DNA of 64,000 nt. Source: a virus. Positions 4,055 through 63,856 of the stretch are shown piece by piece. Where the stretch lies: positions 1 to 64,000 of IMG/VR virus record IMGVR_UViG_3300044899_000017. One strand, written 5' to 3'. Position numbers and translations under genes: made by a program. The notes under the pieces are model-generated. The model saw only the letters and a program-made list of their open reading frames with translations. It was not told where the DNA came from and made no database searches. Position 1 is the stretch's first letter. Each line of letters starts with the position of its first letter.

Positions 4055-4142
4055 TCCGTACGGCCGGGCGCTGCTAGCGGGGTTCTTCCTGCTGGCGGCG
4101 CTCGCGCTGCTCGTCTTCGGACTCGCGCACGCCGGCGTCTGA
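4035..4142 (+). CDS. small membrane protein
   Basis: single hydrophobic helix ALLAGFFLLAALALLVFGL; GGAGAGG upstream. Confidence 0.5.
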   Translation: MPQRPDDPYGRALLAGFFLLAALALLVFGLAHAGV

Positions 4143-4188
4143 TCATTCCGTTATCGTTCGGGCCTCTACCCGAGTCGAGGAGGACGAG
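4140..4188 (+). promoter_or_regulatory. early promoter/5'UTR cassette copy 1 (degenerate palindrome)
   Basis: TGATCATTCCGTTATCGT, TACCCGAG at 4167, GGAGG, ATG 4189. Confidence 0.75.
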
Positions 4189-4656
4189 ATGGCGGAAGAA
4201 CTTGCCGCGGCGCACGAGCGGCTGACGGCGTTCCTGTACCTGCTGATGCGCGACGAAGTGCCGACCGGTGCTGTCGCCGAGTTCGTCAACCGCGCCGCCG
4301 GCGTCGATGGGCCTAGCTTCGACGCGCCGGAGTTGGCAGCGCTCGCGGGGCGGTACGCGGGGACGCTGCTAGCGCCGTGGGGAGGCGCCGAGCGGGACGA
4401 GGAAGAGGGCGAGGTCGGGCGGGTGCGGATTGTGCAGCCGCACGGCGACCTCTTCGTGGACGAGGAGGGCGACGAGTTCGGGCCGGGCGACCCGATGCTC
4501 GCGTTCTTCGACCTCTTCGACGACCGGATACGGTCGCTCCCGACGTTCGCCGACGCTGTGAACGAGGCCGCGGAGAACGACCGGCCGGTGAACGAGGACA
4601 CTGCCCGCATCGTCGCCGCTCGGGCGCGCGAGCTGGCCGAGACGAAGGGAAGCTGA
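4189..4656 (+). CDS. hypothetical protein
   Basis: SD, follows cassette. Confidence 0.8.
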   Translation: MAEELAAAHERLTAFLYLLMRDEVPTGAVAEFVNRAAGVDGPSFDAPELAALAGRYAGTLLAPWGGAERDEEEGEVGRVRIVQPHGDLFVDEEGDEFGPGDPMLAFFDLFDDRIRSLPTFADAVNEAAENDRPVNEDTARIVAARARELAETKGS

Positions 4657-5117
4657 TGGCCGAAGTGGACGGAGTGCTGAAGGGCCTCGTGGTGGACGAG
4701 TTGCGCCGCGGCTCCGACGCGGGCGACTTCCGCTCGCGGGCGCAGCTACAGCAGGCGTGCGGCGTCGGCGCCGGCGACCTCGGAGCGATCCTCGACTCGC
4801 TCCGTGCCGAGGGCGTGGCGTCGGAGCTGGCGCCCGACGAGTGGGCGCTCGCGGACTCGCCGGCCGCGGGGGGCGAGGCCGCGGCCGTGCCCGAGGTCGA
4901 GGAGGAGGAGCCGGGCCGACCGGGCGGGCAGTGGGAGCCGCCGGAGCTGCCGGGCCGGCCTCGGGTGCCGCGCGTCGAGGGCGAGGAGTCGCGGGTGACG
5001 CTGACGCAGGGCGTCGCCGGCGCGCTCGACGAGCAGGCGCTCGGCGCGCTCGTGAAGGCGGGCATCGACGAGGCGAAGGAAGCCTCGGCGACGTTCGTGT
5101 TCGAGGTCACGCCGTGA
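4656..5117 (+). CDS. putative winged-helix DNA-binding protein
   Basis: SRAQLQQACGVGAGDLGAILDSLRAEG...W wHTH-like pattern. Confidence 0.6.
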   Translation: MAEVDGVLKGLVVDELRRGSDAGDFRSRAQLQQACGVGAGDLGAILDSLRAEGVASELAPDEWALADSPAAGGEAAAVPEVEEEEPGRPGGQWEPPELPGRPRVPRVEGEESRVTLTQGVAGALDEQALGALVKAGIDEAKEASATFVFEVTP

Positions 5118-5509
5118 ACGCGCCGACGCTGCCCGACGGGGCGCCGCCGAGTCTGAGCGTGTGCTACTGCTCGGGCAAGCCGGAGCCGATGATTTCGACG
5201 ATGGTCTTCCCGAAGGCCGAGCTGTATTGCCTCCTCTGCGGCGGGAAGGCGGGCATGTTCGACGCGTTCACGGTGGGGAACACGCCGGAGCTGTGGGCGC
5301 GCTACGAGGAGCTGCGCGCCGAGTGGGACGAACACGCCGCGGGGAAGCTCCTCGGGCGCTTCTGGCGGCGCGACTGCACGCGGTGCGAGAACCGCAACTC
5401 GCGGAACGAGTACCACGAGGATCACGCCACGGACGAAGAGCGCGAGGCGCACACGGCCGCGGTCGCGTGGCTAGAGCAGCGCCGCGGCGTGGCGGGGCTG
5501 GCGTCGTGA
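5114..5509 (+). CDS. Zn-binding hypothetical protein
   Basis: CYC, CLLC, CTRC, HEDH. Confidence 0.7.
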   Translation: MNAPTLPDGAPPSLSVCYCSGKPEPMISTMVFPKAELYCLLCGGKAGMFDAFTVGNTPELWARYEELRAEWDEHAAGKLLGRFWRRDCTRCENRNSRNEYHEDHATDEEREAHTAAVAWLEQRRGVAGLAS

Positions 5510-5688
5510 CGCCGGCACGCCGGCGGGCGCGGCGCACCGTGTACGCGGGCAGCGCCGCCGTGGTGGCGGGGATGCTCGTGCTGGCCGCTGCGGGGCAGGG
5601 CCTCGCGGCGATCATGTACGGGAGCGGCTACGGCGTGGGCCTCGTGGTGCTGGCGCTCGCGGTGGTCGCAGATCGAGGGGAGGCGTAG
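5506..5688 (+). CDS. two-TM membrane protein
   Basis: two hydrophobic segments. Confidence 0.65.
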   Translation: MTPARRRARRTVYAGSAAVVAGMLVLAAAGQGLAAIMYGSGYGVGLVVLALAVVADRGEA

Positions 5689-5931
5689 ATGCAGGTCGAG
5701 GTACGGCTGATGATCCTGTCCGACGACGGGGTGCTGATCATGGGCGCGACGCGGATCGACTTCGTGGTGCCCGGCTCGGACTTCGAGGGCAACATCACGA
5801 AGGCGGCAGCTCGGCTCGCCGACTTGCGCGAGGACGCGGAGAAGTCCGTGAACGGGCAGGTGCGGCAGATGCGCGAGGCGGCGCAGCAGCAGGCCGGCGC
5901 CGATCCGGACCGGCCGGCTCCGGAGCGCTGA
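5689..5931 (+). CDS. hypothetical protein
   Basis: SD GGAGG. Confidence 0.75.
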   Translation: MQVEVRLMILSDDGVLIMGATRIDFVVPGSDFEGNITKAAARLADLREDAEKSVNGQVRQMREAAQQQAGADPDRPAPER

Positions 5932-5934
5932 CGC

Positions 5935-6240
5935 GTGCCGCACACGGTCCACGCGCCGCGGCGCACGACCCGGAACGGGAACGTGATCGCGTGGGACCTG
6001 CTCCGGGCGCAGGCGCGCGGGCTGCGGGTGCAGCTCGTGCTGCGCGACAAAGCGGGCCGGCGGGACGGGTGGGTCGTGCGGACGGAGATAGACCCGGCGC
6101 GCACGGGGAAGAAGCAGTCGAACTCGAACTCGAACCTGATCGTCGTGCTGGCGCAGGCGAACGGGAAGGGCGAGACGGAGGTCGCGGTGAACTCCGTCGC
6201 TCGCGTCCTCTTCGACGACGACGTGGACGACGACGGCTGA
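5935..6240 (+). CDS. hypothetical protein
   Basis: ORF, overlap with next gene. Confidence 0.65.
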   Translation: MPHTVHAPRRTTRNGNVIAWDLLRAQARGLRVQLVLRDKAGRRDGWVVRTEIDPARTGKKQSNSNSNLIVVLAQANGKGETEVAVNSVARVLFDDDVDDDG

Positions 6241-6494
6241 TGCCCGCCGAGTTCGACGACATCGCGCCGGTGCATGAAGCGTTCCGGGAGGCGTTCGCGG
6301 GCCTCGTGACGGAGGTCGAGACGGTGCCCGAGTCGGCGCCGCTCTTCGTGGTGGTGCGGCTCCGGAACGACGACCTCGAACGCGACGTGCAGCTAACGGC
6401 CGAGCAGGTCCGCGACGAGCTGCCGCGCATCGTGCGGCGCGAGCTGAAGACGTGGAGTGCGGCGCTGCGGATGGTGGACCGGGGGCGCGCGTGA
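6240..6494 (+). CDS. hypothetical protein
   Basis: TGATG coupling. Confidence 0.7.
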   Translation: MPAEFDDIAPVHEAFREAFAGLVTEVETVPESAPLFVVVRLRNDDLERDVQLTAEQVRDELPRIVRRELKTWSAALRMVDRGRA

Positions 6495-6721
6495 TCGAGC
6501 TGCGAATGCAGGCCGGCATCGACGCGGCGCTCGCGCTCGCGACGGTGAAGCAGCTCGCCGGCCGCTTCACGGGCGACCACGAGATGACGATCCTCGTCGA
6601 GCGCGACGGCGAGATAAAGCGGACGCTGACGCTCGGGCCGCTGTGGACGTTCGACGGCTCGGACGCGCTGCTGTCGCAACTCGAAGAGTTCGGCGTGCCG
6701 AGACTCGCACACGACCGATAA
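6491..6721 (+). CDS. stand-alone DnaE C-terminal-domain-like protein
   Basis: VKQLAGRFTGDHEMTILV...RTLTLGPLWTFDGSDALLSQLEEFG parallels the actinobacterial Pol III alpha C-terminus as recalled. Confidence 0.6.
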   Translation: MIELRMQAGIDAALALATVKQLAGRFTGDHEMTILVERDGEIKRTLTLGPLWTFDGSDALLSQLEEFGVPRLAHDR

Positions 6722-6769
6722 CCCTGTTATCGTCGCGGGTCTACCCGAGCTGACCACGAGGAGGTCGCT
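6716..6769 (+). promoter_or_regulatory. early promoter/5'UTR cassette copy 2
   Basis: CGATAACCCTGTTATCGT, TACCCGAG at 6742, CACGAGGAGG, GTG 6770. Confidence 0.85.
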
Positions 6770-7465
6770 GTGAAGAAGGCTGATATCAGGCTGGGCGAGG
6801 CGCACGCTGTCGATCCGGGGCGGACGGAGGCGGACGCGTACAAGTTCGGCGGGTCGTGGCCGGTGAAGGCCACGGCGCTAGAGGTCGGCGTGGAGTACGA
6901 CCACTCGGGCGGCTATGGCCGGCCGAACCCGAAGCACGACGGCGTGCGCTGCCGGCTAGAGGAGCCGTTCCGGGCGCAGCGCCGCGGGATCAGCGGGGAC
7001 TCGTTCGAGCAGTGGGAGCCGGGCCGCGAGTTCGTCGTGCCGTCGCGGCTCGTGCTGCGGCTGTGGGAGGCGTGGGATCAGGGCCGCGCGTCGAACGACG
7101 AGCAGCGTGTGCGCGACCGCGCGCTCCGCTACGCGCAGCAGGACTTCGTGCGCGAGGCCGGCGCGCGGCTCGGCCTCGGCGCGGTCGAGCTGAAGGCCGA
7201 CGAAGTGACTATCGACCTCGGGCAGCTCGTGCGGTGGCTGAAGCGGGTCGATCCCGCCGAGGTCGCGAGGTCGGCCATAGACGCGTTCATCGAGGAGGTC
7301 GAGCGCCACGAGCCGTTCGCGGGCCTGACGGACCTCGGGAAGCGTGACGCCGGCGCGGTCGGCTCGGAGCTGGACGCGATGAAGCTCGTCGCGCTGAACG
7401 AGGTCGCCGAGGGCCTAGCCGTGTCCGACGCCGACATCGAGCCGGAGGGAGGGCCGCAGTCGTGA
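6770..7465 (+). CDS. hypothetical protein
   Basis: SD, follows cassette. Confidence 0.8.
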   Translation: MKKADIRLGEAHAVDPGRTEADAYKFGGSWPVKATALEVGVEYDHSGGYGRPNPKHDGVRCRLEEPFRAQRRGISGDSFEQWEPGREFVVPSRLVLRLWEAWDQGRASNDEQRVRDRALRYAQQDFVREAGARLGLGAVELKADEVTIDLGQLVRWLKRVDPAEVARSAIDAFIEEVERHEPFAGLTDLGKRDAGAVGSELDAMKLVALNEVAEGLAVSDADIEPEGGPQS

Positions 7466-7767
7466 CGACGCTGACAGCATGGAACGTCGAGACGCTAGGG
7501 CAGGCCGTGGAGGGCATCACCGGCGAAGGGTCGGCGGCTGTGTCGTGGGCCGACGCCGCCGGCGCTGCCATCTCGCGCGCCGGCCGGAAGAGGAAGCCGC
7601 CGCAGCTCGTGGTCGGCGTGTGCGTGCGCGACGACGACACGGAGGCGCGGGTGCGCGAGCTGCCGGGCTTCGTGCGGCTGTCGTCGCGCGAGGACACGGA
7701 CATCGACGACGAGCCGATCCGCGTGCTGCGCGCGGTCTTCACGAGGGAGGGCGGCGGCGATGCCTGA
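7462..7767 (+). CDS. hypothetical protein
   Basis: GTGA overlap, SD. Confidence 0.7.
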   Translation: MTTLTAWNVETLGQAVEGITGEGSAAVSWADAAGAAISRAGRKRKPPQLVVGVCVRDDDTEARVRELPGFVRLSSREDTDIDDEPIRVLRAVFTREGGGDA

Positions 7768-8461
7768 CACGCTGACACTTCCGAGCGCCCGCGAGGCGGG
7801 CGAGCTGATCGGCGTGCCGGCTGACGAGTGGACGGCGAAGTGCCACGCCATCTCGTCGCTGATCGTGCAGGCCGGGATCGTCGAGGGCAACGTGCGCCGC
7901 GGGTGGTTCATCGGCGAGACGAAGCCGGGCGCGTACTTCCACGGCAGGCCGGCGCAGCACTCGTGGATCGGGATGCCCGACGGCCGCGTGTGCGACCCGA
8001 CGCGGCACGCGTTCGTCGGCGGCGAGCCGGAGCTGTGGATCGGCTCCGACGAGGAGTACGACGTGGGCGGCATGAAGACGCAGGGCCGAGGGGGCGAGCC
8101 TCCGTCGATCTTCGACGACGAGGGCGAGCAGATCGAGCTGAACGTGTCGTCCGTCGGGTACTTCGGCGACCTGCTCGGCATCCCGAGCGAGTTCCGCTCC
8201 GACGGCACGGAGGGGGACGAGGGCGACGACGAGGACGACGCGCCAGCGGGCGACGGGTGGCTGATGATCAGCTTCGGGGTGGCGCACTACCTCGCGAACC
8301 TGCCCGTCTTCGACCGCGAGGGGCCGGGCATCCTCTCGTCGTTCTTCGCGGCCGAGGCGTACGAGGCGCTAGAGGCCGCGGGCCACCGGGCGCTGATCCC
8401 TATCGACCGGTGGGAGTTCGTGATCGAGGAGTCGCGCCGCGCGCGGCAGGGGCGCGGCTGA
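7760..8461 (+). CDS. transglutaminase-like/cysteine-protease-fold protein
   Basis: KCHAIS...QHSWI...VCDPT gives a Cys-His-Asp triad pattern. Confidence 0.6.
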
Positions 8462-8757
8462 TGGGCGCCATGAACGCGACGGGGTGGGTCGCCGTCGTGT
8501 CGATGGGCGGCGACGTGAACGAGCTGTGGGACCTGCTCGACGAGTTGGGCGACCGCGCGAAGGCGCGCGGCATCGGGAACGGCGGCGTGACGGTTCACTC
8601 GCTGCCGAAGCGCGAGGGCCTGCCGCGGTATTGCGTGCATCCGCTGTCGGAGCGGGACACGGAGGTCCGCGGCGACGACCTCGCGGAGACGCTGCTGAAG
8701 GCGGCGCTGATGGCCGCGGCGCGGCTGCCCGAGGGCGAGCTGTGGAGGCGGGGCTGA
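8461..8757 (+). CDS. hypothetical protein
   Basis: TGATG coupling. Confidence 0.7.
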
Positions 8758-9350
8758 TGCCGCCGCAGGTCACGCCGGAGATGCGCGAGCTGATGGACGA
8801 GACGAGGGCGATGCTCGCCGGCGGGAAGATGGAGCCGGACCTGATCCCGTGGGGCTGGGAGTCGGAAACCGATCCCGAGTTCGCGGGCCTGCGCCGGCCG
8901 AACGAGCAGACGCCGGACTACCTCGGCCGCGTCCTCGCGTGGGCCGGGATGCCGGAGCTGGCCGCGCGCGCTCGGCTCGGGCACTTCGACGACTTCCACG
9001 CGCCGGCCGAGGTCGCCGACGGGATGGAGATAGTGCGGCTCGTCGGCGAGCTGCGGGCCGAGGCGCGGAAGGTGGTGGACTCGGGCGGGAACCGGTACTC
9101 GCCGGATGCGCGGCGGATGCGTGCCGAGCGCGCCGCGCAGATCGAGAACGCCGCGCGCCGCGGCGAGTTCGACGCGACGAAGGCCGAGTCGGATCGGTGG
9201 GCGGCGTCGAAGGGCGCGCAGGAGACGTTCGACGAGCTGCTGCGCGGAGCGGAGAAGACGAGCCGGCGCGTCGAGAAGGTCGGCAGGAACGACCCGTGCC
9301 CGTGCGGCTCGGGCGAGAAGTACAAGCGATGCTGCGGGAGGGGGAGCTGA
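8757..9350 (+). CDS. SEC-C motif-containing protein
   Basis: C-terminal [21 protein letters not shown]. Confidence 0.85.
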
Positions 9351-9706
9351 TGACGGCGTTCGAGCCGGGATCACACGAGGCGGGGCAGGCGCTCGAAGCG
9401 GTGCGCGAGGCCGCGTGGGAGACGATGCGGCCATGCGTCGTCTTCGGCGCGCAGCTCGTCGGCTATGCGGTGGGCACGCAGCCGGAGGCGTGGGGTGCGA
9501 TGCTCGGCGACCTCGTGGTGCGCGGCGATTCGCCGGCGGACGCGATGCGGTCCTTCGATCAGGCGTGGCGTGGGCTGCCGTGCGAGAAGATGATCCGGCT
9601 GCCCGACGAGGCGCGGTCGGAGGAGACGGGCCGCGAGTGCTGGCGGCACGAGAAGTGCGTGCTGCGGCCGGGACACGAGGGCGACTGCGCGCCCGAGGCG
9701 AGCTGA
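9350..9706 (+). CDS. hypothetical protein
   Basis: C-terminal C..CVLRPGHEGDC motif; coupling. Confidence 0.7.
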   Translation: MTAFEPGSHEAGQALEAVREAAWETMRPCVVFGAQLVGYAVGTQPEAWGAMLGDLVVRGDSPADAMRSFDQAWRGLPCEKMIRLPDEARSEETGRECWRHEKCVLRPGHEGDCAPEAS

Positions 9707-9942
9707 TGGAGGCGACGGTGCGGCTGTCGCTGTCGGGGCCGCTGCCGAAGACGAGCGCCGAGGCCGAGGCGCTGACGGCGGCGCTCGAAGGCGCGGTGCG
9801 GGGGCAGACGGCGTGGTGCCCGGAGGGCTTCGAGCGGCCGACGGCGTTCGGGGTAGAGTCGGCCGAGGTCGTGCTGCTCGACACGGGCGCACGGGAACAT
9901 CGGCACCTGCACGTGGTGGACGACGGAAAGGGGACGGGCTGA
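9706..9942 (+). CDS. hypothetical protein
   Basis: TGATG coupling at both ends. Confidence 0.65.
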   Translation: MEATVRLSLSGPLPKTSAEAEALTAALEGAVRGQTAWCPEGFERPTAFGVESAEVVLLDTGAREHRHLHVVDDGKGTG

Positions 9943-10121
9943 TGGCGGGGAAGCGAGCGGAGCCGGTGAACGTGGGCCGGCGGAAGGTCGATCCGGGGGC
10001 GCTGCCGACTCTCTCCGAGGAGGAGGCCGAGCGGCAGCGGCAGGAGAACGCCGAGCGGACTCGCCGGATCGAGGACGGGCGGCTGCGGTTCGGGCCACTT
10101 CGAGGGGACGTGCGGCGCTGA
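9942..10121 (+). CDS. hypothetical protein
   Basis: TGATG coupling at both ends. Confidence 0.6.
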   Translation: MAGKRAEPVNVGRRKVDPGALPTLSEEEAERQRQENAERTRRIEDGRLRFGPLRGDVRR

Positions 10122-10306
10122 TGGCATACGACGACGACTTCGAGCGCCACGAGCGCCAACTCGACGAGGAGCATCGCGAGGAGCAGCAGCTCGACCGCGA
10201 CATCCGTCACGCGCCGGCGCCGGGCCGCGGGCCTGCGCCGGAGCCGCCGGCGGGGTGGCGCCGCTCGGGCCGTGGCACCATCGAGCGCATCCCGACGCAT
10301 GGGTAA
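10121..10306 (+). CDS. hypothetical protein
   Basis: TGATG coupling. Confidence 0.6.
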   Translation: MAYDDDFERHERQLDEEHREEQQLDRDIRHAPAPGRGPAPEPPAGWRRSGRGTIERIPTHG

Positions 10307-10676
10307 GCGCGCGCGGAAGGGCGGCGTGACGAACGCCGCGGTGCGCGCAGCTCGCGCGGCGTGGCAGCAGCAGGACGACGGCGCGGCCGCGGTCGCGCAG
10401 CGCGTCTATAACGCGGTCCACGAGGCGAAGACGACCGGCGAGGCCGGCGACGTGTCGCCGCTGCTGTGGGGGCCGCTCGTGGTCGCTGCGGAGATGGCCG
10501 CGGCGGTCGTGGTGAAGGCGAACGGGCTGCCCGACACGGAGGAGCAGCGGATCGAGGTCGCGGCGTACTTCACGGCCGGGTTCCTCTCGGGCGCGCACGG
10601 CTTCGACTTCGCACACTTCGAGCGCTGGCGGCAGCGGACAGCCGACGGCGCCGAGCAGGACCCGGAGCCGGGCTAG
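10299..10676 (+). CDS. hypothetical protein
   Basis: ORF overlapping previous stop. Confidence 0.7.
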   Translation: MGKRARKGGVTNAAVRAARAAWQQQDDGAAAVAQRVYNAVHEAKTTGEAGDVSPLLWGPLVVAAEMAAAVVVKANGLPDTEEQRIEVAAYFTAGFLSGAHGFDFAHFERWRQRTADGAEQDPEPG

Positions 10677-10723
10677 CGCTCGGCTGCGGCATCACGGACA
10701 CACACGAGGAGGGGACGCACTCA

Positions 10724-11050
10724 ATGGGAGAGGTACAGACGCTCGGCGCGGCGCCGGCGCGCAGCTTCACGCAGCGGATGGACGCGCTCGACACGGCGAA
10801 CGAGGTCCGGACGTTCCGGGCCGCGAAGAAGCGGGACCTGAAGGCGGGGCGCGCGTCTGTGCGCGAGCTGCTGCTCGACCCGCCGGAGCAGATGCAGACG
10901 ATGAAGGTCTTCGACCTGCTGCTCGCCACGCCGAAGTACGGGCGCGTGAAGGTGAACCGGCTGCTGACGACGTGCCGGATGTCGCCGTCGAAGACGCTCG
11001 GCGGGATGTCGGATCGGCAGCGCTCGGAGCTGGCCGCGATGGTGCGGTGA
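10724..11050 (+). CDS. mihF: actinobacterial-type integration host factor (H2TH nucleoid protein)
   Basis: APARSFTQRMDAL..ANEVR..RA..KRDLKAG...MKVFDLLLATPKYGRVKVNRLL..CRMSPSKTLGGMSDRQR; SD GAGGAGG. Confidence 0.9.
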   Translation: MGEVQTLGAAPARSFTQRMDALDTANEVRTFRAAKKRDLKAGRASVRELLLDPPEQMQTMKVFDLLLATPKYGRVKVNRLLTTCRMSPSKTLGGMSDRQRSELAAMVR

Positions 11051-11064
11051 CGGCCGCACGCGTC

Positions 11065-11113
11065 CGATAACTCTGTTATCGTTCGCGGTGTACCCGAGCT
11101 GTAGGAGGATGTC
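11065..11113 (+). promoter_or_regulatory. early promoter/5'UTR cassette copy 3
   Basis: CGATAACTCTGTTATCGT, TACCCGAGCTGTAGGAGGA at 11091, GTG 11114. Confidence 0.9.
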
Positions 11114-11662
11114 GTGAAGAAGTTCATCGCAGTGTCCGTGGTCGCCGTCTCGTTCCTCGTCGCCGCGCCGGTCGCGCAGGCGGACGCGGTGGACGACGCG
11201 ATAGCCGCGCTCGAAGGGATCAGCAGCGTCCCGGCGCCCGAGGCGGCGCCGCCGGCGCCCGCTCCCGAGGCCGCTCCGACTCCGGCCGAGGAACACGCGG
11301 CGTGCGTCGAGCTGTTCGGCGCGGCCGACTGTCACGAGTTGGAGTGCGAGGAGTCGTTCGGCCTCGACGGGTGCCCGCCGAGCGGGTTCCATTCGTCGGA
11401 CGATCCGCTGCCGCGGGTGCCGCATCTCGGCATCGGCGAGGCGAAGGGATCGCTGCGGCGGCTCTTCGTGCGCGACCTGAACGGGATCAAGCTGCACACG
11501 CGGATCGTCGGGTGCCATCGCACGCGCAGGAACCGCGTGGACTGCACGCTCGTCCTGCACGTGCGGGGCAGCTCGTGCCGCTCGCACGCGTACGTGGTCG
11601 AGACGGCCGACGGTTACACGGCGAACGTGATCGGCTTCCGCTGCCGGAAGGTGGGCCGATAG
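11114..11662 (+). CDS. secreted Cys-rich protein with signal peptide and Pro/Ala linker
   Basis: MKKFIAVSVVAVSFLVAAPVAQA signal peptide; PAPEAAP repeats. Confidence 0.8.
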   Translation: MKKFIAVSVVAVSFLVAAPVAQADAVDDAIAALEGISSVPAPEAAPPAPAPEAAPTPAEEHAACVELFGAADCHELECEESFGLDGCPPSGFHSSDDPLPRVPHLGIGEAKGSLRRLFVRDLNGIKLHTRIVGCHRTRRNRVDCTLVLHVRGSSCRSHAYVVETADGYTANVIGFRCRKVGR

Positions 11663-11863
11663 ATGGCGAAGATCAGCGCACGAGGCGACCGCGAGAAGGC
11701 GCGGTGGCGGCATCCGGAGTCGGGCGCCGAGCTGGTGCTGACGGTGAAGGGCCGGCTGCTCTTCAAGTTTCAGAAGGGCGCGTCGCTGTCGCTGCGGCGT
11801 TCGCAGGTCACGGATCAGGGCGCCGCGGACTACGCGGCCGAGCGCGGAATGGAGCGTGTCTGA
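11663..11863 (+). CDS. hypothetical protein
   Basis: abuts neighbours. Confidence 0.7.
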   Translation: MAKISARGDREKARWRHPESGAELVLTVKGRLLFKFQKGASLSLRRSQVTDQGAADYAAERGMERV

Positions 11864-12156
11864 TGGCCGGCATCGAGCCTCCCGAGGGCTTCGAGCTGCG
11901 CGGCCGCGCGCGGCTCGCGCCGGCGACGCTGAAGGCGCGGCCGGTGACGGAGTGGCAGGGCGACCTGCGCCGGCTGCTCGAAGCGGGCGCCGGCGAGCGG
12001 TGGCTGACGCCGCGCGAGGCCGGCTTCGGCTCGGCCGGCGGCGTGACGAACGGGCTGCACGCGCGCGGGGCGCTGCTGATCGCGGAGAAGCGGTCCGTGA
12101 AGCGCTACCGGCTGACGGACTACGGCGCCCGAGTGGCGCGGACGGGGAGGGCATGA
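11863..12156 (+). CDS. hypothetical protein (possible wHTH)
   Basis: YRLTDYG wing-like C-terminus. Confidence 0.6.
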   Translation: MAGIEPPEGFELRGRARLAPATLKARPVTEWQGDLRRLLEAGAGERWLTPREAGFGSAGGVTNGLHARGALLIAEKRSVKRYRLTDYGARVARTGRA

Positions 12157-12746
12157 TGCGGTACTGGACGATCAAGGGCGACCCGGACGACCGGCGCTTC
12201 TGCTTCACGACGGAGCCGCGGTTCGAGTGCCCGCACGAGTCGATCACGTACTCCGTGACGGACCTCGCCGGCGGCGCGCCGACGATCACGAAGCGCCGGC
12301 CGGAGGAAGCGGTCGGCATCACGTTCACGCGGCACGTGTCGGAGGAGATGGCGCAGGCCGCGCAGCTCCTCGGCCTCGACGGGAAGAAGCTCGCGGCGAT
12401 GCTCGTGGGCGCGCATCGCTCGAAGCCGCCGACGCGCGAGCGGGTGGACGGGAAGCTAACGAACCGGTGCGCGACGTGCGGCGCGAAGATGATCGACCAC
12501 GGGTACTCGGCCTACGTTGAGCGGCCGCGGCGCGAAGACGAGATGGACGCGATGCACCGGACCTCGGCCGCGATCAGTTCGCGGCTCGGCGGCGAAGGGC
12601 CGATGGTGCGGCTGAAGAGCGCGACGGGCCTGAAGCGGTCCGAGGCGCGGCAGTGGGCGTGGGAAGCGCGGCAGCAGGTCGCCGCGGAACTCGAAGAGAT
12701 GAGTGGCGCGCCGTCGCGGAGCGGGCACTCGAAGGGGAAGGCGTGA
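12153..12746 (+). CDS. hypothetical protein
   Basis: SD GGAGG, ATGA overlap; CATC..H. Confidence 0.7.
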   Translation: MMRYWTIKGDPDDRRFCFTTEPRFECPHESITYSVTDLAGGAPTITKRRPEEAVGITFTRHVSEEMAQAAQLLGLDGKKLAAMLVGAHRSKPPTRERVDGKLTNRCATCGAKMIDHGYSAYVERPRREDEMDAMHRTSAAISSRLGGEGPMVRLKSATGLKRSEARQWAWEARQQVAAELEEMSGAPSRSGHSKGKA

Positions 12747-13557: not shown

Positions 13558-13558
13558 G

Positions 13559-14767: not shown

Positions 14768-14776
14768 AGTTCGCGG

Positions 14777-55456: not shown

Positions 55457-55674
55457 TGGCGAAGGTGATCGCACCCGTGAAGCTCGCCGAGCTGATCAAG
55501 TCGCAGCCGCTCGTCGGCGTGAGTGGGGCGGCGAAGATTCTCGGCATCGTGCCGCCGAACTTCAGGCGCTACCGCGACCGGCTGACGGAGATACCCATCG
55601 AGGGTTCGGCGTCGGCGTTCGTGAAGGCCGAGGTCGAAGAGCTGCGCGACGAGTTGCAGCTCGGCCGCTCCTGA
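55456..55674 (+). CDS. small HTH DNA-binding protein (Xis/MerR-like)
   Basis: LVGVSGAAKILGI....F.RY....F.KAEVE. Confidence 0.75.
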   Translation: MAKVIAPVKLAELIKSQPLVGVSGAAKILGIVPPNFRRYRDRLTEIPIEGSASAFVKAEVEELRDELQLGRS

Positions 55675-55948: not shown

Positions 55949-55975
55949 ATGCCCGAGCCGACCCGGCGCGCGTAA
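55949..55975 (+). CDS. 8-aa leaderless uORF (MPEPTRRA) coupled to ATPase
   Basis: TGTACT-N7-ATG; TAATG overlap with ATPase start. Confidence 0.45.
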   Translation: MPEPTRRA

Positions 55976-57813
55976 TGTCGCCGGCAGAGATTTACCTCGC
56001 GAAGTCCGGAAGCCGCCGCGGCGCCACGCTGCCGGCCGATTCGGTCACTCGGACGTTCGGCATCTTCGGCGTGAAGGACTCGGGCAAGTCCACCACGGCG
56101 CGCACGCTCGCCGAGGGCGTCGTGAAGCTCGGCGGGCACGTCGTGATCCTCGACCCGGTGGGCGTGTGGTGGGGCATCACGCGCCGCGGCGAGGGGCCGG
56201 GCCTGCCGGGCATCGTGATCGGCGGCGAGCATGGGGACGTGCCGCTAGAGAAGGAAGGCGGCGCGCTCGTCGCGGAGTTCGTGGTGGGCCGGCATTACCC
56301 GGTCGTCGTGATTGACACGATGCTGCTGCGGAAGGGCGCGCGGCTCGCGTTCCTCGCCGACTTCCTCGAAGGCGTCTACCACTCGAACCGGCGTCCGCTT
56401 CAGCTCGTGTTCGAGGAGGCGGACGAGGCGCTGCCGCAGTCGCCGCGGGGCATGAACCCGACGCTCGGGCGCGTGCTGGGCGCGGCCGAGGACATCGTGA
56501 AGAAGGGCCGCTCGCGCGGCCTCGGCTCGACGTTCATCTCGCAGCGGTTCGCCACGGTGACGAAGAACGTCACGACGCAGGTCGAGTGCCTGATCCTCCA
56601 CGCGCAGCCGGCGCCGCAGGATCAGAAGGCGGTGAAGGAATGGGTCGCGACGAACGGCGACACGCGCGTCACGGACCGCGTGATGGCGTCGATGGCGTCG
56701 CTCGATGTCGGCGAGGCATGGCTGTACTCGCCGAAGTGGCTGAAGCTGCTCGCGCAGATTCGCGTGCGGAAGCCGAAGACGCTCGACTCGTCCTCGACGC
56801 CGACGGACGACGAGCGCGAGCTAGACGAGCAGGCGCCGCGCGCGCCGGTCGATAAGGCCGAGCTGGCGCGGCAGATGTCGGAGGTCGTCGAGCGCGCGAA
56901 GGGTAAGGACCCGGCCGAGCTGAAGAAGCGGATCGCCGAACTCGAAGCGCAGCTCGCAGACGTGAAGCCCGAGGTCGTCGAGGTCGCCGGCGAGCGGGTG
57001 ATCGTGCCGGACGCCGAGACGGTGCGGGAGTTGGCCGAGTCCGTGGAGGTCTTCGCGGACGCCGCGCAGGCGATCACGGACTCCGTGGAACACCTGCTGT
57101 CCGAGGCCGAGGGGCTAGATAGGCGGATCACCCGAGCCGAGGAGACGCGCCGCGAAGTCGTGGACGCGCTCGCGGCCGCGCGGGCGACGCTCGACGAGCT
57201 GAAGGGCATCCCGGCCGAGGGCGTGCCCGTCACGCCGGCGCCGCGCGCTGCGCCAGCTCCGCGGCCTCGTGCCGCCGCGGCGTCGAACGGGAAGCCCGCA
57301 GCGCCGGCGGGCGATGCCGAGGACGTGTCGCCGGGCGCGCTGAAGCTGCTCGACGAGATGCGCGAGGTGTACCCCCTACGGTTGAACCGTATTCAGCTCG
57401 CGACGATCCTCGGGCGGGGGAAGAAGTCCTCGACGCTGACGCAGCAGCTCGCCGAGCTGAAGGACGCGGACCTGATCCGGGAGGACGGCTCGAAGCTGCT
57501 GTCGGCGGTCGTCACGGGCGCGCAGGCCGAGATGTCGAAGGGCGAGCTGATCGACCGGTGGCGCTCGGCGCTGCCCGAGGGTCCGCTCGCGCTGCTCGAC
57601 GTGCTGCTCGGACTGCCCGGCGGCGGCGGCATCGGGAAGGACGACCTCTTCGTGCAGGCGGGCTTCTCGGCCACGTCCTCGACGCCGGTCGGGCACCTGA
57701 AGATGCTGAAGGACAATGGGCTGGCATTCGAGCCGCAGAAGAAGGTCGTGATGCTCGGGCCGGCGCTCGCCGATCAGGAGGCGGACCCGCGGGGAGCTGC
57801 GACCGTCCGATAA
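55975..57813 (+). CDS. HerA/FtsK-superfamily ATPase (DUF87-like) with coiled coil and C-terminal wHTH-like repeats
   Basis: GVKDSGKS, ILDPVG, LVFEEAD, GRSRG, SQR. Confidence 0.85.
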   Translation: MSPAEIYLAKSGSRRGATLPADSVTRTFGIFGVKDSGKSTTARTLAEGVVKLGGHVVILDPVGVWWGITRRGEGPGLPGIVIGGEHGDVPLEKEGGALVAEFVVGRHYPVVVIDTMLLRKGARLAFLADFLEGVYHSNRRPLQLVFEEADEALPQSPRGMNPTLGRVLGAAEDIVKKGRSRGLGSTFISQRFATVTKNVTTQVECLILHAQPAPQDQKAVKEWVATNGDTRVTDRVMASMASLDVGEAWLYSPKWLKLLAQIRVRKPKTLDSSSTPTDDERELDEQAPRAPVDKAELARQMSEVVERAKGKDPAELKKRIAELEAQLADVKPEVVEVAGERVIVPDAETVRELAESVEVFADAAQAITDSVEHLLSEAEGLDRRITRAEETRREVVDALAAARATLDELKGIPAEGVPVTPAPRAAPAPRPRAAAASNGKPAAPAGDAEDVSPGALKLLDEMREVYPLRLNRIQLATILGRGKKSSTLTQQLAELKDADLIREDGSKLLSAVVTGAQAEMSKGELIDRWRSALPEGPLALLDVLLGLPGGGGIGKDDLFVQAGFSATSSTPVGHLKMLKDNGLAFEPQKKVVMLGPALADQEADPRGAATVR

Positions 57814-57865
57814 CCCTGTTATCGTGCCGTCCACCCGAGTCATTCGATCACGAGGAGACGGCGAG
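57808..57865 (+). promoter_or_regulatory. early promoter/5'UTR cassette copy 8
   Basis: CGATAACCCTGTTATCGT, CACCCGAG at 57832, CACGAGGAG, ATG 57866. Confidence 0.85.
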
Positions 57866-58909
57866 ATGGCGGAAGCAGCGAAGCGGAGCAGCGCGAACAC
57901 GGACCTCTACATCGGCACGATGAAGGTCCCGGTGGGCCTCTTCGGCACGATGGCGTCGCCGGCGAAAGAGCAGAAGTTCGACACGGCCGGACCGAACGGC
58001 GGGAAGCTGAAGTACGAGCAGCGCGCCGTGATCGCCGAGCAGGAGTCGGACGTGGCCGACGAGCCGGACGCGCCCGTGCAGTCCGACCCGCTCGCGACGA
58101 GCGATCCCGGCTCGGACGCGCCGGCGCTCGCCGATACCGTCGAGCGTGCCGAGGCGCGCTCGGCCGAGCTGCGGCAGGCTGCCGATGTCGGCCGGAAGAT
58201 GATGGACTCCGGACCGGGGACGCTCGTGCCCGGCGAGTTCCGGCAGGTACTCGTCGAGGAAGGCTCCGGCGAGGTCGTCGAGGCCGAGGACGTGCGCCGC
58301 GGCGTGCGGCTCGAAGACGGCCGCTTCATCGACGTAACGGAGCAGGTGACGGCCATCGACACGCGCACGAAGCTCGACCGGATCGAGATTCTGCGGTGCG
58401 TGGACTCGACGCAGATCAGGCGCGAGCGTGTGATCGGCGCTTACTACGTCGGCGCGCAGGAGACGGAGGGCCTGCCGTACCTGCGGCTGCTCTTCGAGGC
58501 GCTGAAGAAGCGGCGCGAGGTCGCCGTCGTGAAGTACACGACGAAGAGCCGGCAGAACCTCGGCGTGATCAGCGCGAACGCGAAGACCGGCACGCTGATC
58601 CTGAACTCGCTCGTCTTCGCCGAGGACTGGCGCGAGCCGCCGGCGAAGGCGCTCGGCATCGCAAAGGTGCAGGTCGCGGAGTCGCAGGTCGAGCAGATGG
58701 CCGAGCTGCTGTCCGTGATGCACGGCCACGTGGACGACGTGGACGCGCTCCGCGACGACGCGATAGCGCTGCGCGAGGAGCTGCGCGCGCGTGCCGAGGC
58801 GGGCGAGATGGCCGAGGTCGTCGAGCCGATGCCGGCGGCGGACGCGGTGCCGGACCTCGAAGGCGCGCTCGCCGCGTCGCTCGAAGCGGTCCGTGCGGGC
58901 AAGGTCTAG
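57866..58909 (+). CDS. ku: Ku-like DNA end-binding protein
   Basis: VPVGLF...VRRGV.....FI.V...IEI...V...I......YY...LLFEAL.....AV.K...L.FAE..R; DL..AL.ASL tail. Confidence 0.85.
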   Translation: MAEAAKRSSANTDLYIGTMKVPVGLFGTMASPAKEQKFDTAGPNGGKLKYEQRAVIAEQESDVADEPDAPVQSDPLATSDPGSDAPALADTVERAEARSAELRQAADVGRKMMDSGPGTLVPGEFRQVLVEEGSGEVVEAEDVRRGVRLEDGRFIDVTEQVTAIDTRTKLDRIEILRCVDSTQIRRERVIGAYYVGAQETEGLPYLRLLFEALKKRREVAVVKYTTKSRQNLGVISANAKTGTLILNSLVFAEDWREPPAKALGIAKVQVAESQVEQMAELLSVMHGHVDDVDALRDDAIALREELRARAEAGEMAEVVEPMPAADAVPDLEGALAASLEAVRAGKV

Positions 58910-60743: not shown

Positions 60744-60919
60744 AGGCCGAAGGCGGCGATGATCGCCGGGCTGACGCTGCTGCGCGCGACGAGCGCGTCC
60801 ATCACGAGGACGGCGGCGAGCTGCTGATCGGTGAGACGGGATCGGTCCATAGTCCCCTGTATCGGCAGCTCGCCGGATACCTGAAGCGTGGCGCGGCGGT
60901 GCCTACGATGGGGGCGTGA
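60737..60919 (+). CDS. hypothetical protein
   Basis: fills gap; SD GGAGG. Confidence 0.4.
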   Translation: MLKAEGGDDRRADAAARDERVHHEDGGELLIGETGSVHSPLYRQLAGYLKRGAAVPTMGA

Positions 60920-61563
60920 CGGTGGCCGAGAAGCAGAAGCCGAAGGCGGGGCAGCGTGGCGCGCGGACGCAGGCGAGGCAGACTCGCGAGCTGACGGTCG
61001 AGGAACGTGCCGAGCGCGAGGCCGCGAACGCGAAGCGCGCCGCGGCGAAGGGCGCCCGGCTGAACTCGGCGCAGACGGGCCTGCGGAACTCGCTGATCAT
61101 CGCGCGCGCCGCGCAGGGCATGGAGTGGAAGGACATCGCGAAGGAAGCGGGCATCTCGGCGCGGCAGTGCCAGCGCGTCGCCGAGGCCGCGCGGTCCGTC
61201 GATTCGCCGGTGGACGAGTCGCCGATGCAGCTCCTCGAAGGGATCGCGTCGGGCTTCGCTCGAAGCATCGGCGACTACGAACGGATGGCGTTCGCGTGGG
61301 CCGACACGAATCAGTCGGCGGCGCTCGGCGCGAAGAAGGCCGCGGACGAGACGCGCGCGCGGCTGGCGTCGCTGATGGCCGAGGTCGGGAAGCTGCCGTC
61401 GAACCTCGAACTCTTCCGGTCGGAGATGGCGATGCAGCGGATCGCGGAGCAGATGGTCGGGATGATGCGCGCGGTGGCCGCGGGCGAGAAGACGCCGGAC
61501 GAGGCGGTGGCGTTCTTCCGCGAACTCGTCGGGCAGCGCGCACGCGCGCAGCTCGTGGCCTGA
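60916..61563 (+). CDS. HTH protein, terminase small subunit-like
   Basis: RA.GM.WKDIAKEAGIS.RQC.R followed by helical hairpin; TACGAT-N6-GTG leaderless. Confidence 0.55.
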   Translation: MTVAEKQKPKAGQRGARTQARQTRELTVEERAEREAANAKRAAAKGARLNSAQTGLRNSLIIARAAQGMEWKDIAKEAGISARQCQRVAEAARSVDSPVDESPMQLLEGIASGFARSIGDYERMAFAWADTNQSAALGAKKAADETRARLASLMAEVGKLPSNLELFRSEMAMQRIAEQMVGMMRAVAAGEKTPDEAVAFFRELVGQRARAQLVA

Positions 61564-61694: not shown

Positions 61695-61759
61695 TGATAA
61701 CTCTGTTATCGTGGTGGGCGTACCCGAGCTGTCCACCACCACGAGGAGAATCACCCGCA
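61695..61759 (+). promoter_or_regulatory. early promoter/5'UTR cassette copy 9
   Basis: TGATAACTCTGTTATCGT, TACCCGAG at 61721, CACGAGGAG, ATG 61760. Confidence 0.85.
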
Positions 61760-62536
61760 ATGTCCACACTTACCGCAGTCCCCGCAGCCGCCGCCATCGC
61801 GCCGGCGCCGCCGCAGCCGCAGGTCGCCGATCCCATCGCGCCGTTCATCGCGCCGCACCTGCTCGTGACGACCGCGCACCCGTCGCTGCTTCAGCATCCC
61901 GACCCGGACACGGACGCGCCGGTGCATCGCCATCTCGGCCGTCTGCTGCAACCGCGGCACACGTCAAGCGTCGAGGCGACCGCCGCGGCCGGCATCCCGT
62001 GGGCCTGCGATAACGACTGCTTTCAGGGCCTCGACGAGAAGGCATTCGTGCGGATGATCGACCGCATGGTGGGCCTGCCCGGCTGCCGGTTCGTGACGGT
62101 GCCCGACGTGGTGGCCGACGCGCGCGCCACGGCGAAGCAGTTCGAGACGTGGGCGCCGGCGCTCGAACGCCGCGGCCTCCCGCTCGCGCTCGTGCTTCAG
62201 AACGGCATCGACGCGCCCGACCTTCAGGGGTGGCTCGCGTTCACGTGGCACCGGCTCGACGCGGTGTTCATCGGCGGCGACGACGACTTCAAGCTCGGAC
62301 CGCTCGCGGCCGAGCTGGCGCGCGACGCGAAGGCGCACGGCCTGCACGTTCACTGGGGCCGCGTGAACTCGCGCAAGCGGATGAAGCACTGCATCGAGAC
62401 GGGCGCGTGCGACTCGCTCGACGGCTCGATGTGGGCGCGCTTCCGAAAGACGCATCTCGATAAGGGGCTGCGGTGGCTCGGCGAGCTGTCGTCGGAGCCG
62501 ATGCTGCCGTTCGAGCTGGCGGTCGCCGCGGCCTAG
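61760..62536 (+). CDS. TGT/DpdA-like TIM-barrel protein (candidate DNA base-exchange enzyme)
   Basis: WACDNDCF, VPDVV, LVLQNG, FIGG, VHWGRVN, DSLDGS motifs in TGT-like order. Confidence 0.55.
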   Translation: MSTLTAVPAAAAIAPAPPQPQVADPIAPFIAPHLLVTTAHPSLLQHPDPDTDAPVHRHLGRLLQPRHTSSVEATAAAGIPWACDNDCFQGLDEKAFVRMIDRMVGLPGCRFVTVPDVVADARATAKQFETWAPALERRGLPLALVLQNGIDAPDLQGWLAFTWHRLDAVFIGGDDDFKLGPLAAELARDAKAHGLHVHWGRVNSRKRMKHCIETGACDSLDGSMWARFRKTHLDKGLRWLGELSSEPMLPFELAVAAA

Positions 62537-62581
62537 CCGCCGGCGACACGGGCCTCGTGCCCGAGGAGGTAGGGAAGCATC

Positions 62582-62610
62582 CGCGGCGCCTTCGGGCGCC
62601 GCGATTCGTT
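62582..62610 (+). terminator. intrinsic terminator
   Basis: CGCGGCGCC-TTCG-GGCGCCGCG then ATTCGTT. Confidence 0.85.
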
Positions 62611-62628
62611 CCGGGCCTCGCGTGCCGC

Positions 62629-62685
62629 CGATAACTCTGTTATCGTGCCGTGTGTACCCGAGCTGCACGACCTGAGGAGGTCGCG
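62629..62685 (+). promoter_or_regulatory. early promoter/5'UTR cassette copy 10
   Basis: CGATAACTCTGTTATCGT, TACCCGAGCTGCACGA at 62655, GAGGAGG, ATG 62686. Confidence 0.9.
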
Positions 62686-63741
62686 ATGTCCACCACCACT
62701 AGCACTTCCCACACGTACGCGGTAGGCGACCGCGTTCGCATCCTGAAGCCGGGCGAGGAGGGCGAGGGGCAGATCACCTTCGTCTCCGACGACGGCGCGC
62801 CGGCGAGCCTCGAAGTCTCCCGGCACTTCGCCGGCGGGCTGTGGCTGCGACCCGATCAGGTCGAGCTGATCACGCCGGCGCCCGAGGTTCAGAAGACGGA
62901 GGCCGGCGAAGACGGCATCCGCGCGGAGAAGGTGCTGATCACGGAGCGGAACGCCGGCGGGCAGTGCGTGCGCGAGGTCGTGGTCGAGCGGATCACGGAG
63001 GACGGCTCGATCCGGCAGACGACGGTCCGCGAGGTCGAGTACGACACGGAGACGGCGACCGCGAAGTGGGAGACGCCGCGCGCTGTCTCGCCGGACCGCG
63101 CGACCGCGTACATCGAGGAGTGCTACGAGCGCGAGCTGCTGACGCGGCCCGGGGAGGAGCTGATCATGCCGACGATGTTCGACGAGATTCGGAGCCGTCA
63201 CGCGACGGAGCAGGACGCGGCGCGCGAGCTGGGCCGCGGGCTGATGCGCGGCGACCGCGCCAGCTTCAAGCTCGGGTGGTCGTGGGAGAACTCGGCGCTC
63301 GCCGCCATCGACGCGTACACGCTCGACGACGACGACATCGCGGAGCTGCGCTGCTACCTGCTCGGCTATGCGGTCGGGCTGTCCGCCGGCGGCGGCGACG
63401 AGATGGGCGAGCGGATGCTCGCGCGGCTGCCGCAGCCGGAGGAGTTCCGCGCGGCGTACACGACCGGGAAGCACGACGGCCGGCAGGAGCAGGTCGGCGT
63501 GACCTACCCGGACGTGATCGAGACGGCCGCGGCGCGGCGCCAGCGCGAGCGCGAAGAGCTGCTGACGATGCGCGAGTGCGGCTGCGGCGCGACGACGGAG
63601 GGCGAATGCTGCGCCGCGGTGGAGGGCTACTTCACGTCGCTCGGGCAGCGCTCCGAACACGAGCTGCGCGAGCTGCACGAGGGCGACGGCTGCGAGGCCG
63701 CGCGCATCCTCCTCGTGAAGCGCGCGGGGCGGGACTCCTAA
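62686..63741 (+). CDS. hypothetical protein (N-terminal KOW/SH3-like)
   Basis: YAVGDRVRIL..G.EG.I; SD. Confidence 0.8.
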   Translation: MSTTTSTSHTYAVGDRVRILKPGEEGEGQITFVSDDGAPASLEVSRHFAGGLWLRPDQVELITPAPEVQKTEAGEDGIRAEKVLITERNAGGQCVREVVVERITEDGSIRQTTVREVEYDTETATAKWETPRAVSPDRATAYIEECYERELLTRPGEELIMPTMFDEIRSRHATEQDAARELGRGLMRGDRASFKLGWSWENSALAAIDAYTLDDDDIAELRCYLLGYAVGLSAGGGDEMGERMLARLPQPEEFRAAYTTGKHDGRQEQVGVTYPDVIETAAARRQREREELLTMRECGCGATTEGECCAAVEGYFTSLGQRSEHELRELHEGDGCEAARILLVKRAGRDS

Positions 63742-63813
63742 CGAAACTTCGGCTCGGGTACAGCGACCGAAGGCGTGACCGGCCGGCTCCTCGTGGCCGG
63801 CCGGTCCGCAGCC

Positions 63814-63856
63814 TAAGATCGCGCCACCCGAGCTGTAGGAATCCGAGGATCGAGCG
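63814..63856 (+). promoter_or_regulatory. cassette copy 11 (-10 and box, no palindrome)
   Basis: TAAGAT-N6-ACCCGAGCTGTAGGA...GAGGA-ATG 63857. Confidence 0.65.

Follow-up and report, generated by a model that had tools for sequence, protein, structure and literature searches.

Why one short DNA unit should stand, nearly unchanged, ahead of so many separate gene blocks of a single phage is the question raised by the 64,000-nucleotide window analysed here, which comprises bases 1–64000 of a 77,780-bp IMG/VR virus record (IMGVR_UViG_3300044899_000017; the phage is termed G000 below). The unit, or cassette, consists of a 17-bp palindrome, CGATAAC-N3-GTTATCG, whose right arm supplies a −10-like hexamer, followed by the heptamer ACCCGAG (the box), a Shine–Dalgarno sequence (SD) and a start codon. 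On balance we consider it probable that the whole combines a sigma-A-type early promoter, an operator for a phage repressor, and a leader targeted by a small RNA (sRNA). What was computed in silico is the motif, together with its bias in strand and position, its conservation and its complementarity to a second element; the sigma factor used, the point where transcription starts, the binding of a repressor, and both the expression of the sRNA and the sense in which it acts are inferred from these.

The palindrome, perfect or degenerate and followed by T, is present in ten copies in G000, all on the + strand and each with ACCCGAG downstream. Searching with the 17-bp pattern at up to three mismatches returned 10 matches, against 1.09 ± 1.01 in shuffled sequences, with 0 of 100 shuffles reaching 10. 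Nine of the matches are sites reported in a first-pass annotation of the same DNA, and the tenth site of that annotation, the more degenerate 47101, was recovered through TATCGT-N12-ACCCGAG, so that all ten of its + strand palindromes are confirmed. The remaining match, at 41664, was rejected as a chance occurrence: it lies inside a baseplate-like gene, where it encodes PPPEP, and is not conserved in the related phage G001 (described below). The annotation had also held that the right arm always supplies TATC(G/C)T, usually with a TGn extension, and this agrees with the presence of the hexamer in 10/10 palindromic copies and of a directly preceding TG in six of them. TATCNT is found 11 times on the + strand (10 of these within cassettes) and twice on the − strand. 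ACCCGAG begins 8–13 nt past the palindrome, which places (T/C)ACCCGAG 7–12 nt past it, as annotated, and an SD and start codon follow at all ten sites; each copy occupies a short gap just upstream of the SD and ATG/GTG, with 13–35 nt between ACCCGAG and the start codon. The cassettes are absent from the 14.9–46.9 kb structural module, as had been observed, and likewise from the 64.0–77.8 kb portion of the full genome.

Perfect palindromes are found in five + strand cassettes: cassette 2 (6716–6772; −10 at 6728–6733, box at 6743–6749, GTG at 6770; orthologue at G001 18148), cassette 3 (11065–11116; −10 at 11077–11082, box at 11092–11098, GTG at 11114; orthologous region at G001 22095), cassette 6 (54103–54154; −10 at 54115–54120, box at 54130–54136, ATG at 54152), cassette 8 (57808–57868; −10 at 57820–57825, box at 57833–57839, ATG at 57866 of a Ku-like gene; orthologue at G001 77198) and cassette 10 (62629–62688; −10 at 62641–62646, box at 62656–62662, ATG at 62686; orthologue at G001 82734, with a −35 TTGACG at 18 bp). 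A GC hairpin with a TTCG loop lies 5′ of cassette 10. The other five, also on the + strand, depart from the consensus to varying degrees. Cassette 1 (4140–4191) has the degenerate TGATCAT-tcc-GTTATCG (4140–4156), with TATCGT at 4152–4157, ACCCGAG at 4168–4174, an SD and ATG at 4189, and the orthologous G001 junction (14753) also holds a cassette. Cassette 4 (13835–13894) reads CGATAGC-gcg-CTTATCG, with the −10 at 13847–13852, the box at 13862–13868 and ATG 13892 of a DnaQ-like exonuclease gene. Cassette 5 (47101–47154) has the degenerate CGATGCC-gaa-CGTATCG, the −10 at 47113–47118, a 12-nt spacer, the box at 47131–47137 and GTG 47152 of a RecT-like gene, the spacer of its G001 orthologue at 49978 being 16 nt. 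Cassette 7 (55214–55273) reads CGATAGC-tcc-GTTATCC, with TATCCT at 55226–55231, the box at 55242–55248, ATG at 55271 and an orthologue at G001 74038; its operon includes a winged helix-turn-helix (wHTH) gene at 55456–55674. Cassette 9 (61695–61762) reads TGATAAC-tct-GTTATCG, with the −10 at 61707–61712, the box at 61722–61728, ATG at 61760 and a near-orthologous site at G001 81666.

Two further + strand copies have the hexamer and box alone. The first-pass annotation recognised a single palindrome-less copy, and that copy stands (63814–63859; TAAGAT at 63814–63819, a 6-nt spacer, ACCCGAG at 63826–63832, and ATG 63857 of a 965-aa protein), but the count does not, a second having been overlooked at 1506–1527, where TACGCT-N9-GCCCGAG lies just 3′ of a terminator-like hairpin and has an orthologue, TACGAT-N9-GCCCGAG, at G001 13314.

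Several features of these junctions may be recorded alongside. In at least four copies the left arm provides the TGA, TAA or TAG that ends the upstream open reading frame (ORF) (4140–4142, a TGA; 6719–6721, a TAA; 13838–13840; and 57811–57813), and where it does so, operator, −10 and stop codon share 18 bp. The sequence CGATAAG-tct-GTGCTGC at 54804–54820, inside or next to ORF 54793–55212, has a good left arm with the right arm and −10 lost, and may be a decayed copy of the cassette. Several promoters are preceded by GC-rich hairpins with short T-rich tails (1435–1500, 14768–14846, 51621–51705 and 62560–62600); these resemble terminators delimiting transcription units, of a form that a standard T-run scan misses at this GC content.

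The phage itself has few known relatives. Its genome has a GC content of 71.6% and a terminal overlap of 127 bp (1–127 = 77654–77780); because 127 is a common assembler k-mer size, this ‘direct terminal repeat’ may be no physical repeat but an overlap left by assembly of a circular or circularly permuted contig. Every credible gene, like every cassette, is on the + strand. There is no nucleotide match to G000 among 50,697 isolated phages, two of its proteins have no tblastn match in isolated phages at E < 1e-5, and its large terminase gives matches of about 25% identity only. The DnaQ-like exonuclease has homologues only in actinobacteriophages, for example Gordonia, Microbacterium, Arthrobacter and Streptomyces phages, and the host is therefore probably a high-GC actinobacterium (Actinomycetota). 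Searches of G000 for an integrase or resolvase, for a CI-like repressor and for tRNA genes found none.

A palindrome-alone scan of IMG/VR returned chance matches besides two sequences. One, L037, proved to be part of G001, a complete phage of 86,185 bp and 70.9% GC that is syntenic with G000 at 40–87% protein identity; the other, L006, is a 6.1-kb metagenome contig with one perfect cassette upstream of an SD and ATG, the gene 3′ of which has a homologue in G001, within the operon that the 82734 cassette precedes. When IMG/VR was scanned with single proteins, the strict cassette, the sRNA core, or alignments of sheath and helix-turn-helix (HTH) proteins, G001 alone was recovered; the cassette-bearing sequences total three. 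In 185,579 bacterial and archaeal genomes neither a cassette relative nor a sheath relative was found, and there is thus no prophage and no direct clue to the host. G001 carries 14 palindromic cassettes and one palindrome-less copy. At least 7–8 of the 11 G000 sites have a G001 cassette at the orthologous junction, even with protein identity of just 40–65%: those in front of recT, Ku, the wHTH operon, the 11.1-kb block and the 6770, 61760 and 62686 genes, and the one that follows the 3590 gene. One G001 cassette lies on the − strand, directly ahead of an operon that runs leftward and whose ORFs are genuinely coding in composition, from which it follows that the element is oriented with its gene.

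The least expected layer of the cassette is the box, which the first-pass annotation left unexplained. The spacing from the −10 to ACCCGAG ranges over 6–16 nt in G000 and G001 (modes 7 and 9), and the box accordingly sits at or just after the expected start of transcription and is not rigidly placed relative to polymerase; judged from its sequence context, it behaves as a 5′-terminal mRNA tag tied to the promoter side. When 30-nt windows over the whole G000 + strand (about 15,500) were scored against the 11 leaders by mean pairing energy, the best complement was 46971–47000 (mean −36.8 kcal/mol, z −6.1), the next outside this element having z −4.4; in G001, scanned against its own leaders, the homologous 49881–49915 ranks first (z −5.6). 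The G000 segment belongs to a candidate sRNA, at 46931–47064 on the + strand, composed of a promoter-like GGCTTC-N16-TACGAT (46931–46958), the anti-leader core CCTCGTGCGGCTCGGGTAAAG (46982–47002) and a terminator hairpin (47027–47064). The loci of the two phages align, with an upstream TANNNT of TACGAT in G000 and TATCAT in G001; the core, CCTC(T)TCGTGCG(G/A)CTCGGGTAAAG, is near-identical between them (in the TCGTGCG-R-CTCGGGTAAAG part, only the G/A position differs) and is followed in both by a 12–13-bp GC hairpin with a U-rich tail (13 bp in G000, fold z −3.7). The G/A difference in the core fits the dominant leader base after the box (+8: C in G000, T in G001), giving ACCCGAGC in G000 and ACCCGAGT in G001, and cognate leader–core pairings are better than cross pairings by 7.6 kcal/mol (interaction term). 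Among 119 G000 gene starts ranked by pairing, the cassette genes take ranks 1–8, 10, 14 and 15 (p = 4e-8). The candidate has no Rfam family match. Taken together, these data link the tag to a complementary, small-RNA-like element, and they lean towards the box and SD leader being the target of a conserved phage sRNA.

Several observations temper this assignment. The target ranking is partly circular, the RNA having been found by complementarity to the same leaders; the evidence for it comes from two genomes only; the G001 core pairs G000 leaders about as well as its own; and in G000 and G001 alike the anti-leader element adjoins the recT cassette on its 5′ side, which would suit a purely cis role. 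In 8/11 G000 copies, moreover, the box starts 9–10 nt after the −10, so that a start exactly at the box A would be unusually far downstream and may instead lie 2–3 nt upstream.

These reservations lead to the strongest of the competing explanations, in which promoter and operator hold but ACCCGAG is an initial-transcribed or start-site element, or the DNA site of a second protein, and the 46.98-kb element is a cis attenuator of recT alone or a coincidence preserved by common descent. Its appeal lies in the position of the anti-leader immediately 5′ of the recT cassette in both phages, where read-through could sequester that leader; in a leader–core covariation backed by two genomes only; and in the pyrimidine–A step at the start of the box, which fits the general preference for a pyrimidine at −1 and a purine at +1. 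A strong terminator, however, separates the anti-leader element from recT, the complement covers the SD contexts of many leaders and not only that of recT, and by mean pairing energy the element is the best leader complement in both genomes; a spacing of 6–16 nt is also poor for a DNA element contacted by polymerase. We therefore judge this explanation unlikely, and retain the sRNA-targeted leader.

Two hairpins at 63747–63810, just 5′ of the palindrome-less copy at 63814, present in their loops GCTCGGGTA and TCCTCGTG, the two halves of the sRNA core. The pair may form a second anti-leader or act as a switch in cis, and no counterpart was seen in G001. CTCGGGTACAGC is additionally present at 31529.

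The promoter layer is best seen in a profile of 24 aligned sites from G000, G001 and L006 (25 in a later alignment and pairing test). T13, A14, T15, C16 and T18 are invariant in 24/24 sites. T18 falls beyond the dyad, with A at the mirror position in just 2/24 sites; T13 is invariant while its dyad partner varies (A in 14, C in 9, G in 1); and position 17 is free (G in 16, A in 6, C in 2). An invariant T18 with no symmetric partner, together with a free position 17, indicates a TANNNT −10 laid over the dyad. The palindrome-less G000 copies retain TANNNT as TAAGAT and TACGCT. The actinobacterial extended −10 has the form GnTANNNT, and G at −14 (G11) is present in 21/24 sites and TG in 13/24. 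In G001, TTGCAC, TTGACG, TTGCAG or TTGCTA stands 17–18 bp upstream of TATCNT, the first three in at least six cassettes, and over all sites a −35-like T-x-G-C at 17-bp spacing is found with T in 13/24, G in 16/24 and C in 14/24. The −35 of G000 is weak, only xCGCAC being kept, which counts against a conventional promoter and would make promoter strength there rest on the extended −10. A scan for E. coli-style consensus promoters found nothing, as expected at this GC content. The invariance of the −10 (24/24), the unpaired T18, the G001 −35 and an orientation that follows the gene all favour the host-sigma early promoter proposed in the first-pass annotation, and it is very likely that the cassette promoter is of the host housekeeping sigma type (sigma-A/HrdB).

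A phage-specific promoter, in which the dyad would serve not a repressor but a factor needed for transcription (a specificity factor or an activator encoded by the phage, or else a modified polymerase), accounts for three facts: the dyad is never found without −10 and box, G000 has no good −35, and a protein with a sigma-r4-like HTH (60916–61563) is conserved in all three cassette-bearing sequences. It agrees poorly with the rest. The site is centred near −16 over the −10, the position of a repressor and not that of known activators; the palindrome-less copies retain TANNNT and the box; G001 cassettes have canonical −35 and −10 elements 17–18 bp apart; and Pfam Sigma70_r2 detected no sigma r2 domain, RNA polymerase genes not having been specifically searched. 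This reading seems to us quite improbable beside a housekeeping-type promoter. Further promoter assignments were tried and set aside: a T7-like polymerase or phage sigma (no sigma r2 domain, with no polymerase-specific search made); a sigma-28/WhiG-type −10 in the left arm (GCCGATAA), which has no TAAA −35 and leaves the symmetry unexplained; MerR-type spacer activation, which needs another dyad centre than the one here at about −16, with a spacer of 17–18 bp; and a CGGG-N4-CCCG mini-hairpin in the discriminator, which would fall 5′ of the predicted start and for which a G-rich discriminator is the better reading.

What the −10 leaves unaccounted for is the left arm, where G2 and A3 are invariant and T4 is present in 23/24 sites, mirroring A14, T15 and C16. 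The dyad core is GAT-N9-ATC, with half-sites about 10 bp apart, and spans about −24 to −8, its right arm being the −10. Because these left-arm bases have no role in the −10 and an RNA hairpin is poorly supported, a dimeric DNA-binding protein at the dyad is the best reading; conservation of G2, A3 and T4 thereby strengthens the annotation's idea of an overlapping operator for a dimeric phage regulator, and that the dyad is an operator for a phage repressor appears likely. The same restriction noted above, that the dyad is never seen apart from a promoter, tempers this and gives some weight to a promoter-specificity factor, and a slight excess of covariation between the arms (0.166 against 0.101 ± 0.018 in shuffles) gives a little to a stem in RNA or single-stranded DNA.

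That excess is one attraction of an explanation that places the function of the palindrome in RNA or single-stranded DNA, where a 7-bp stem-loop in polycistronic + strand transcripts would serve for processing, stability or attenuation before gene blocks. All genes are co-directional, and the palindrome would be transcribed by read-through; several arm deviations are G·U-compatible on the + strand, and one is compensatory. In the pairing test on 25 sites, however, although 86.9% of cells pair, the central pair 5 is an unpaired C·U in 10/25 and pair 1 is unpaired in 8/25; T18, beyond the stem, never varies, and neither does T13, although the partner of T13 does; the stem has no U-tract after it; and the excess comes mainly from the outer pair (a 3′ A from TATCAT variants of the −10), doubly changed outer pairs being about as frequent as chance. 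A functional RNA stem is, on these grounds, slightly less probable still than the phage-specific promoter. Least credible, and very improbable, is a dyad that is the operator of a host transcription factor tying phage early genes to a host regulon, which gains from binding by a phage protein being no more than predicted, but sits badly with the absence of the cassette pattern (one that includes the phage-specific box) from the 185,579 bacterial and archaeal genomes, with a half-site unlike the known actinobacterial boxes of LexA, IdeR, GlnR, KstR and CRP, and with the conserved small HTH proteins encoded in the phages' own cassette operons.

For the phage repressor itself, two predicted regulators are candidates. 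The first is the 72-aa product of 55456–55674 (+ strand), a MerR/BldC/Xis-like winged HTH with seven homologues, in all of which a PPNFRRYR motif is invariant; its structural model (predicted local distance difference test, pLDDT, 78) resembles BldC, the Xis of mycobacteriophage Pukovnik, RacA and the DNA-binding domains of MerR/GlnR (Foldseek probability 1.0, E 6.5e-3), and its gene lies shortly 3′ of a cassette in both G000 and G001. The second, the 215-aa product of 60916–61563 (+ strand), has an HTH at residues of about 60–90 with weak HTH_23, sigma-70 r4 and HTH_3 signals, is the sole source of an HTH_3 or sigma-r4-like signal in the G000 genome, and has homologues in G001 (58% identity) and L006 (28%, E 1e-15), that is, in all three cassette-bearing sequences. 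Neither case is free of difficulty: proteins of the BldC and Xis types as a rule recognise direct repeats rather than palindromes, the Foldseek E-values for the first candidate are weak, and the model of the second (pLDDT 56) is too poor for structure search. Of the two proteins proposed in the first-pass annotation, the product of 55456–55674 thus gains from its fold and its position behind a cassette in both phages, whereas nothing supports that of 4656–5117.

A literature search for the cassette motif strings gave nothing usable. Several known systems resemble it in architecture. In lambda, 17-bp dyad operators of cI/Cro overlap early promoters, and in phiC31, 17-bp conserved inverted repeats (CIRs) near early promoters are bound by the c repressor. 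The cassette shares with both a 17-bp dyad, its half-sites one helical turn apart, over an early core promoter, and its many copies across the early regions likewise imply one repressor for many promoters; it differs in that the right arm is itself the −10 in every palindromic copy, in an unrelated sequence, and in the fixed mRNA leader box of each copy. With no integrase or CI-like repressor found, the arrangement looks like lytic early shut-off rather than immunity. In the start-associated sequences (SAS/ESAS) of Cluster K mycobacteriophages, a conserved 13-bp motif abuts or includes the ribosome-binding site, keeps a constant distance to the start codon in a subset of genes, and is accompanied by an inverted repeat further upstream. 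The cassette is alike in having a short coding-strand motif ahead of some start codons only, and an inverted repeat that goes with it; ACCCGAG, however, is another motif, tracks the −10 and lies 13–35 nt from the start codon, and the palindrome carries the −10. The contrast with these sequences was correctly drawn in the first-pass annotation: the motif differs, and the box-to-start distance varies.

Cluster O mycobacteriophages have a 17-bp repeat, TGTTCGG-N3-CCGAACA, in >30 copies, often between genes or at gene 5′ ends, which shows no orientation bias, lies inside ORFs in many instances and is separate from predicted SigA promoters (PMC4351075). Its 7-N3-7 geometry and multi-copy presence in an actinophage match those of the cassette, and Cluster O phages also have Ku-like genes and a displaced terminase gene; the cassette, by contrast, differs in sequence, has 10–14 copies, is oriented with the downstream gene, is fused to a −10 and has a box downstream, and the two G000 proteins compared by tblastn showed no similarity to Cluster O proteins. 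For the leader layer, the nearest precedent is the c4 antisense RNA of P1/P7, two short stretches of which are complementary to the ant mRNA leader, including the ribosome-binding site (PMC12197685). The candidate sRNA resembles it as a small phage RNA matching a leader, ribosome-binding site included, in two stretches, with a translation block predicted. Whereas c4 is released by processing from the transcript of its single target, the candidate would match 11–14 separate early mRNAs through their shared box and looks to be a unit by itself, furnished with a promoter-like element and a terminator. The promoter–operator part of the cassette thus looks to be of a familiar kind, and its leader and antisense RNA pairing looks unusual and new.

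A second promoter-like class, GG(G/T)ATC-N16-TA(C/G)NNT, has ATG/GTG 6–9 nt further on and stands ahead of the structural, lysis and terminase blocks in both phages; at that distance from the start codon, it would give leaderless mRNAs without box or SD. G000 has nine on the + strand (window positions 14847, 20548, 22927, 23707, 29245, 42896 and 46931, and genome positions 73151 and 74199) and none on the −; G001 has eight on the + strand (5263, 26009, 30992, 33791, 46992, 63411, 64183 and 70275) against two on the −. The promoter-like element of the candidate sRNA, GGCTTC-N16-TACGAT at 46931, loosely fits this class.

On the wider map, a gpA-type large terminase gene lies at genome positions 75279–77162 (15279–17162 of L005). 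Between it and the module for portal, head and tail stand about 15 kb of small genes of early type, which carry five of the promoters (window 1–14850). Early and late blocks alternate round the circular map, and the G001 capsid block (64.9–70.3 kb) is relocated relative to G000. The early genes of 47152–54088 and 55975–58909 include those for RecT-like, PD-(D/E)XK nuclease, phage Zn-finger, wHTH initiator-like, IstB/DnaC-like loader, RusA, HerA-like ATPase and Ku-like proteins; most other early proteins, including the 965-aa product of 63857–66754, have no Pfam or PHROG family match.

Drawn together, the proposal is that each cassette would act as a self-contained start unit for early transcription and translation, built in three layers. 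The first would be a host sigma-A/HrdB-type promoter with the −10 TATCNT in the extended context GnTANNNT, often TGn, and a −35 that is weak in G000 and clear in G001. In the second, a dimeric phage protein on the dyad would block RNA polymerase and turn all early units off together; as the products of 55456–55674 and 60916–61563 would be made from cassette-driven operons, negative feedback is predicted. Transcription would begin at (T/C)ACCCGAG or 0–3 nt before it, giving every early mRNA the same 5′ box and then an SD, and in the third layer an RNA of about 100 nt (46.96–47.06 kb) would pair with box and SD, so that tagged early mRNAs would suffer a translation block or decay. Late operons, with their other promoter class and leaderless messages, would escape the sRNA. 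More tentatively, and with slightly less confidence than we place in the leader as an sRNA target, a single sRNA, probably expressed from a late-type promoter, may through a two-part core pair with the 5′ box (UACCCGAG...SD) and turn off 11–14 early operons to which leaderless late mRNAs are immune, forming an RNA-based early-to-late switch over a shared promoter–operator in a lytic actinophage lineage.

The economy of the arrangement is considerable, one 17-mer doubling as operator and −10 and, in some copies, supplying the upstream gene's stop codon too, and the cassette is a compact, potentially repressible promoter part for high-GC Actinomycetota. It also defines an early gene set in a phage lineage with almost no annotated proteins. 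If the proposal is true, the lineage would provide a clear case of a phage controlling a whole temporal gene class post-transcriptionally through a common 5′ tag, and would show a route by which leaderless late messages escape such control.

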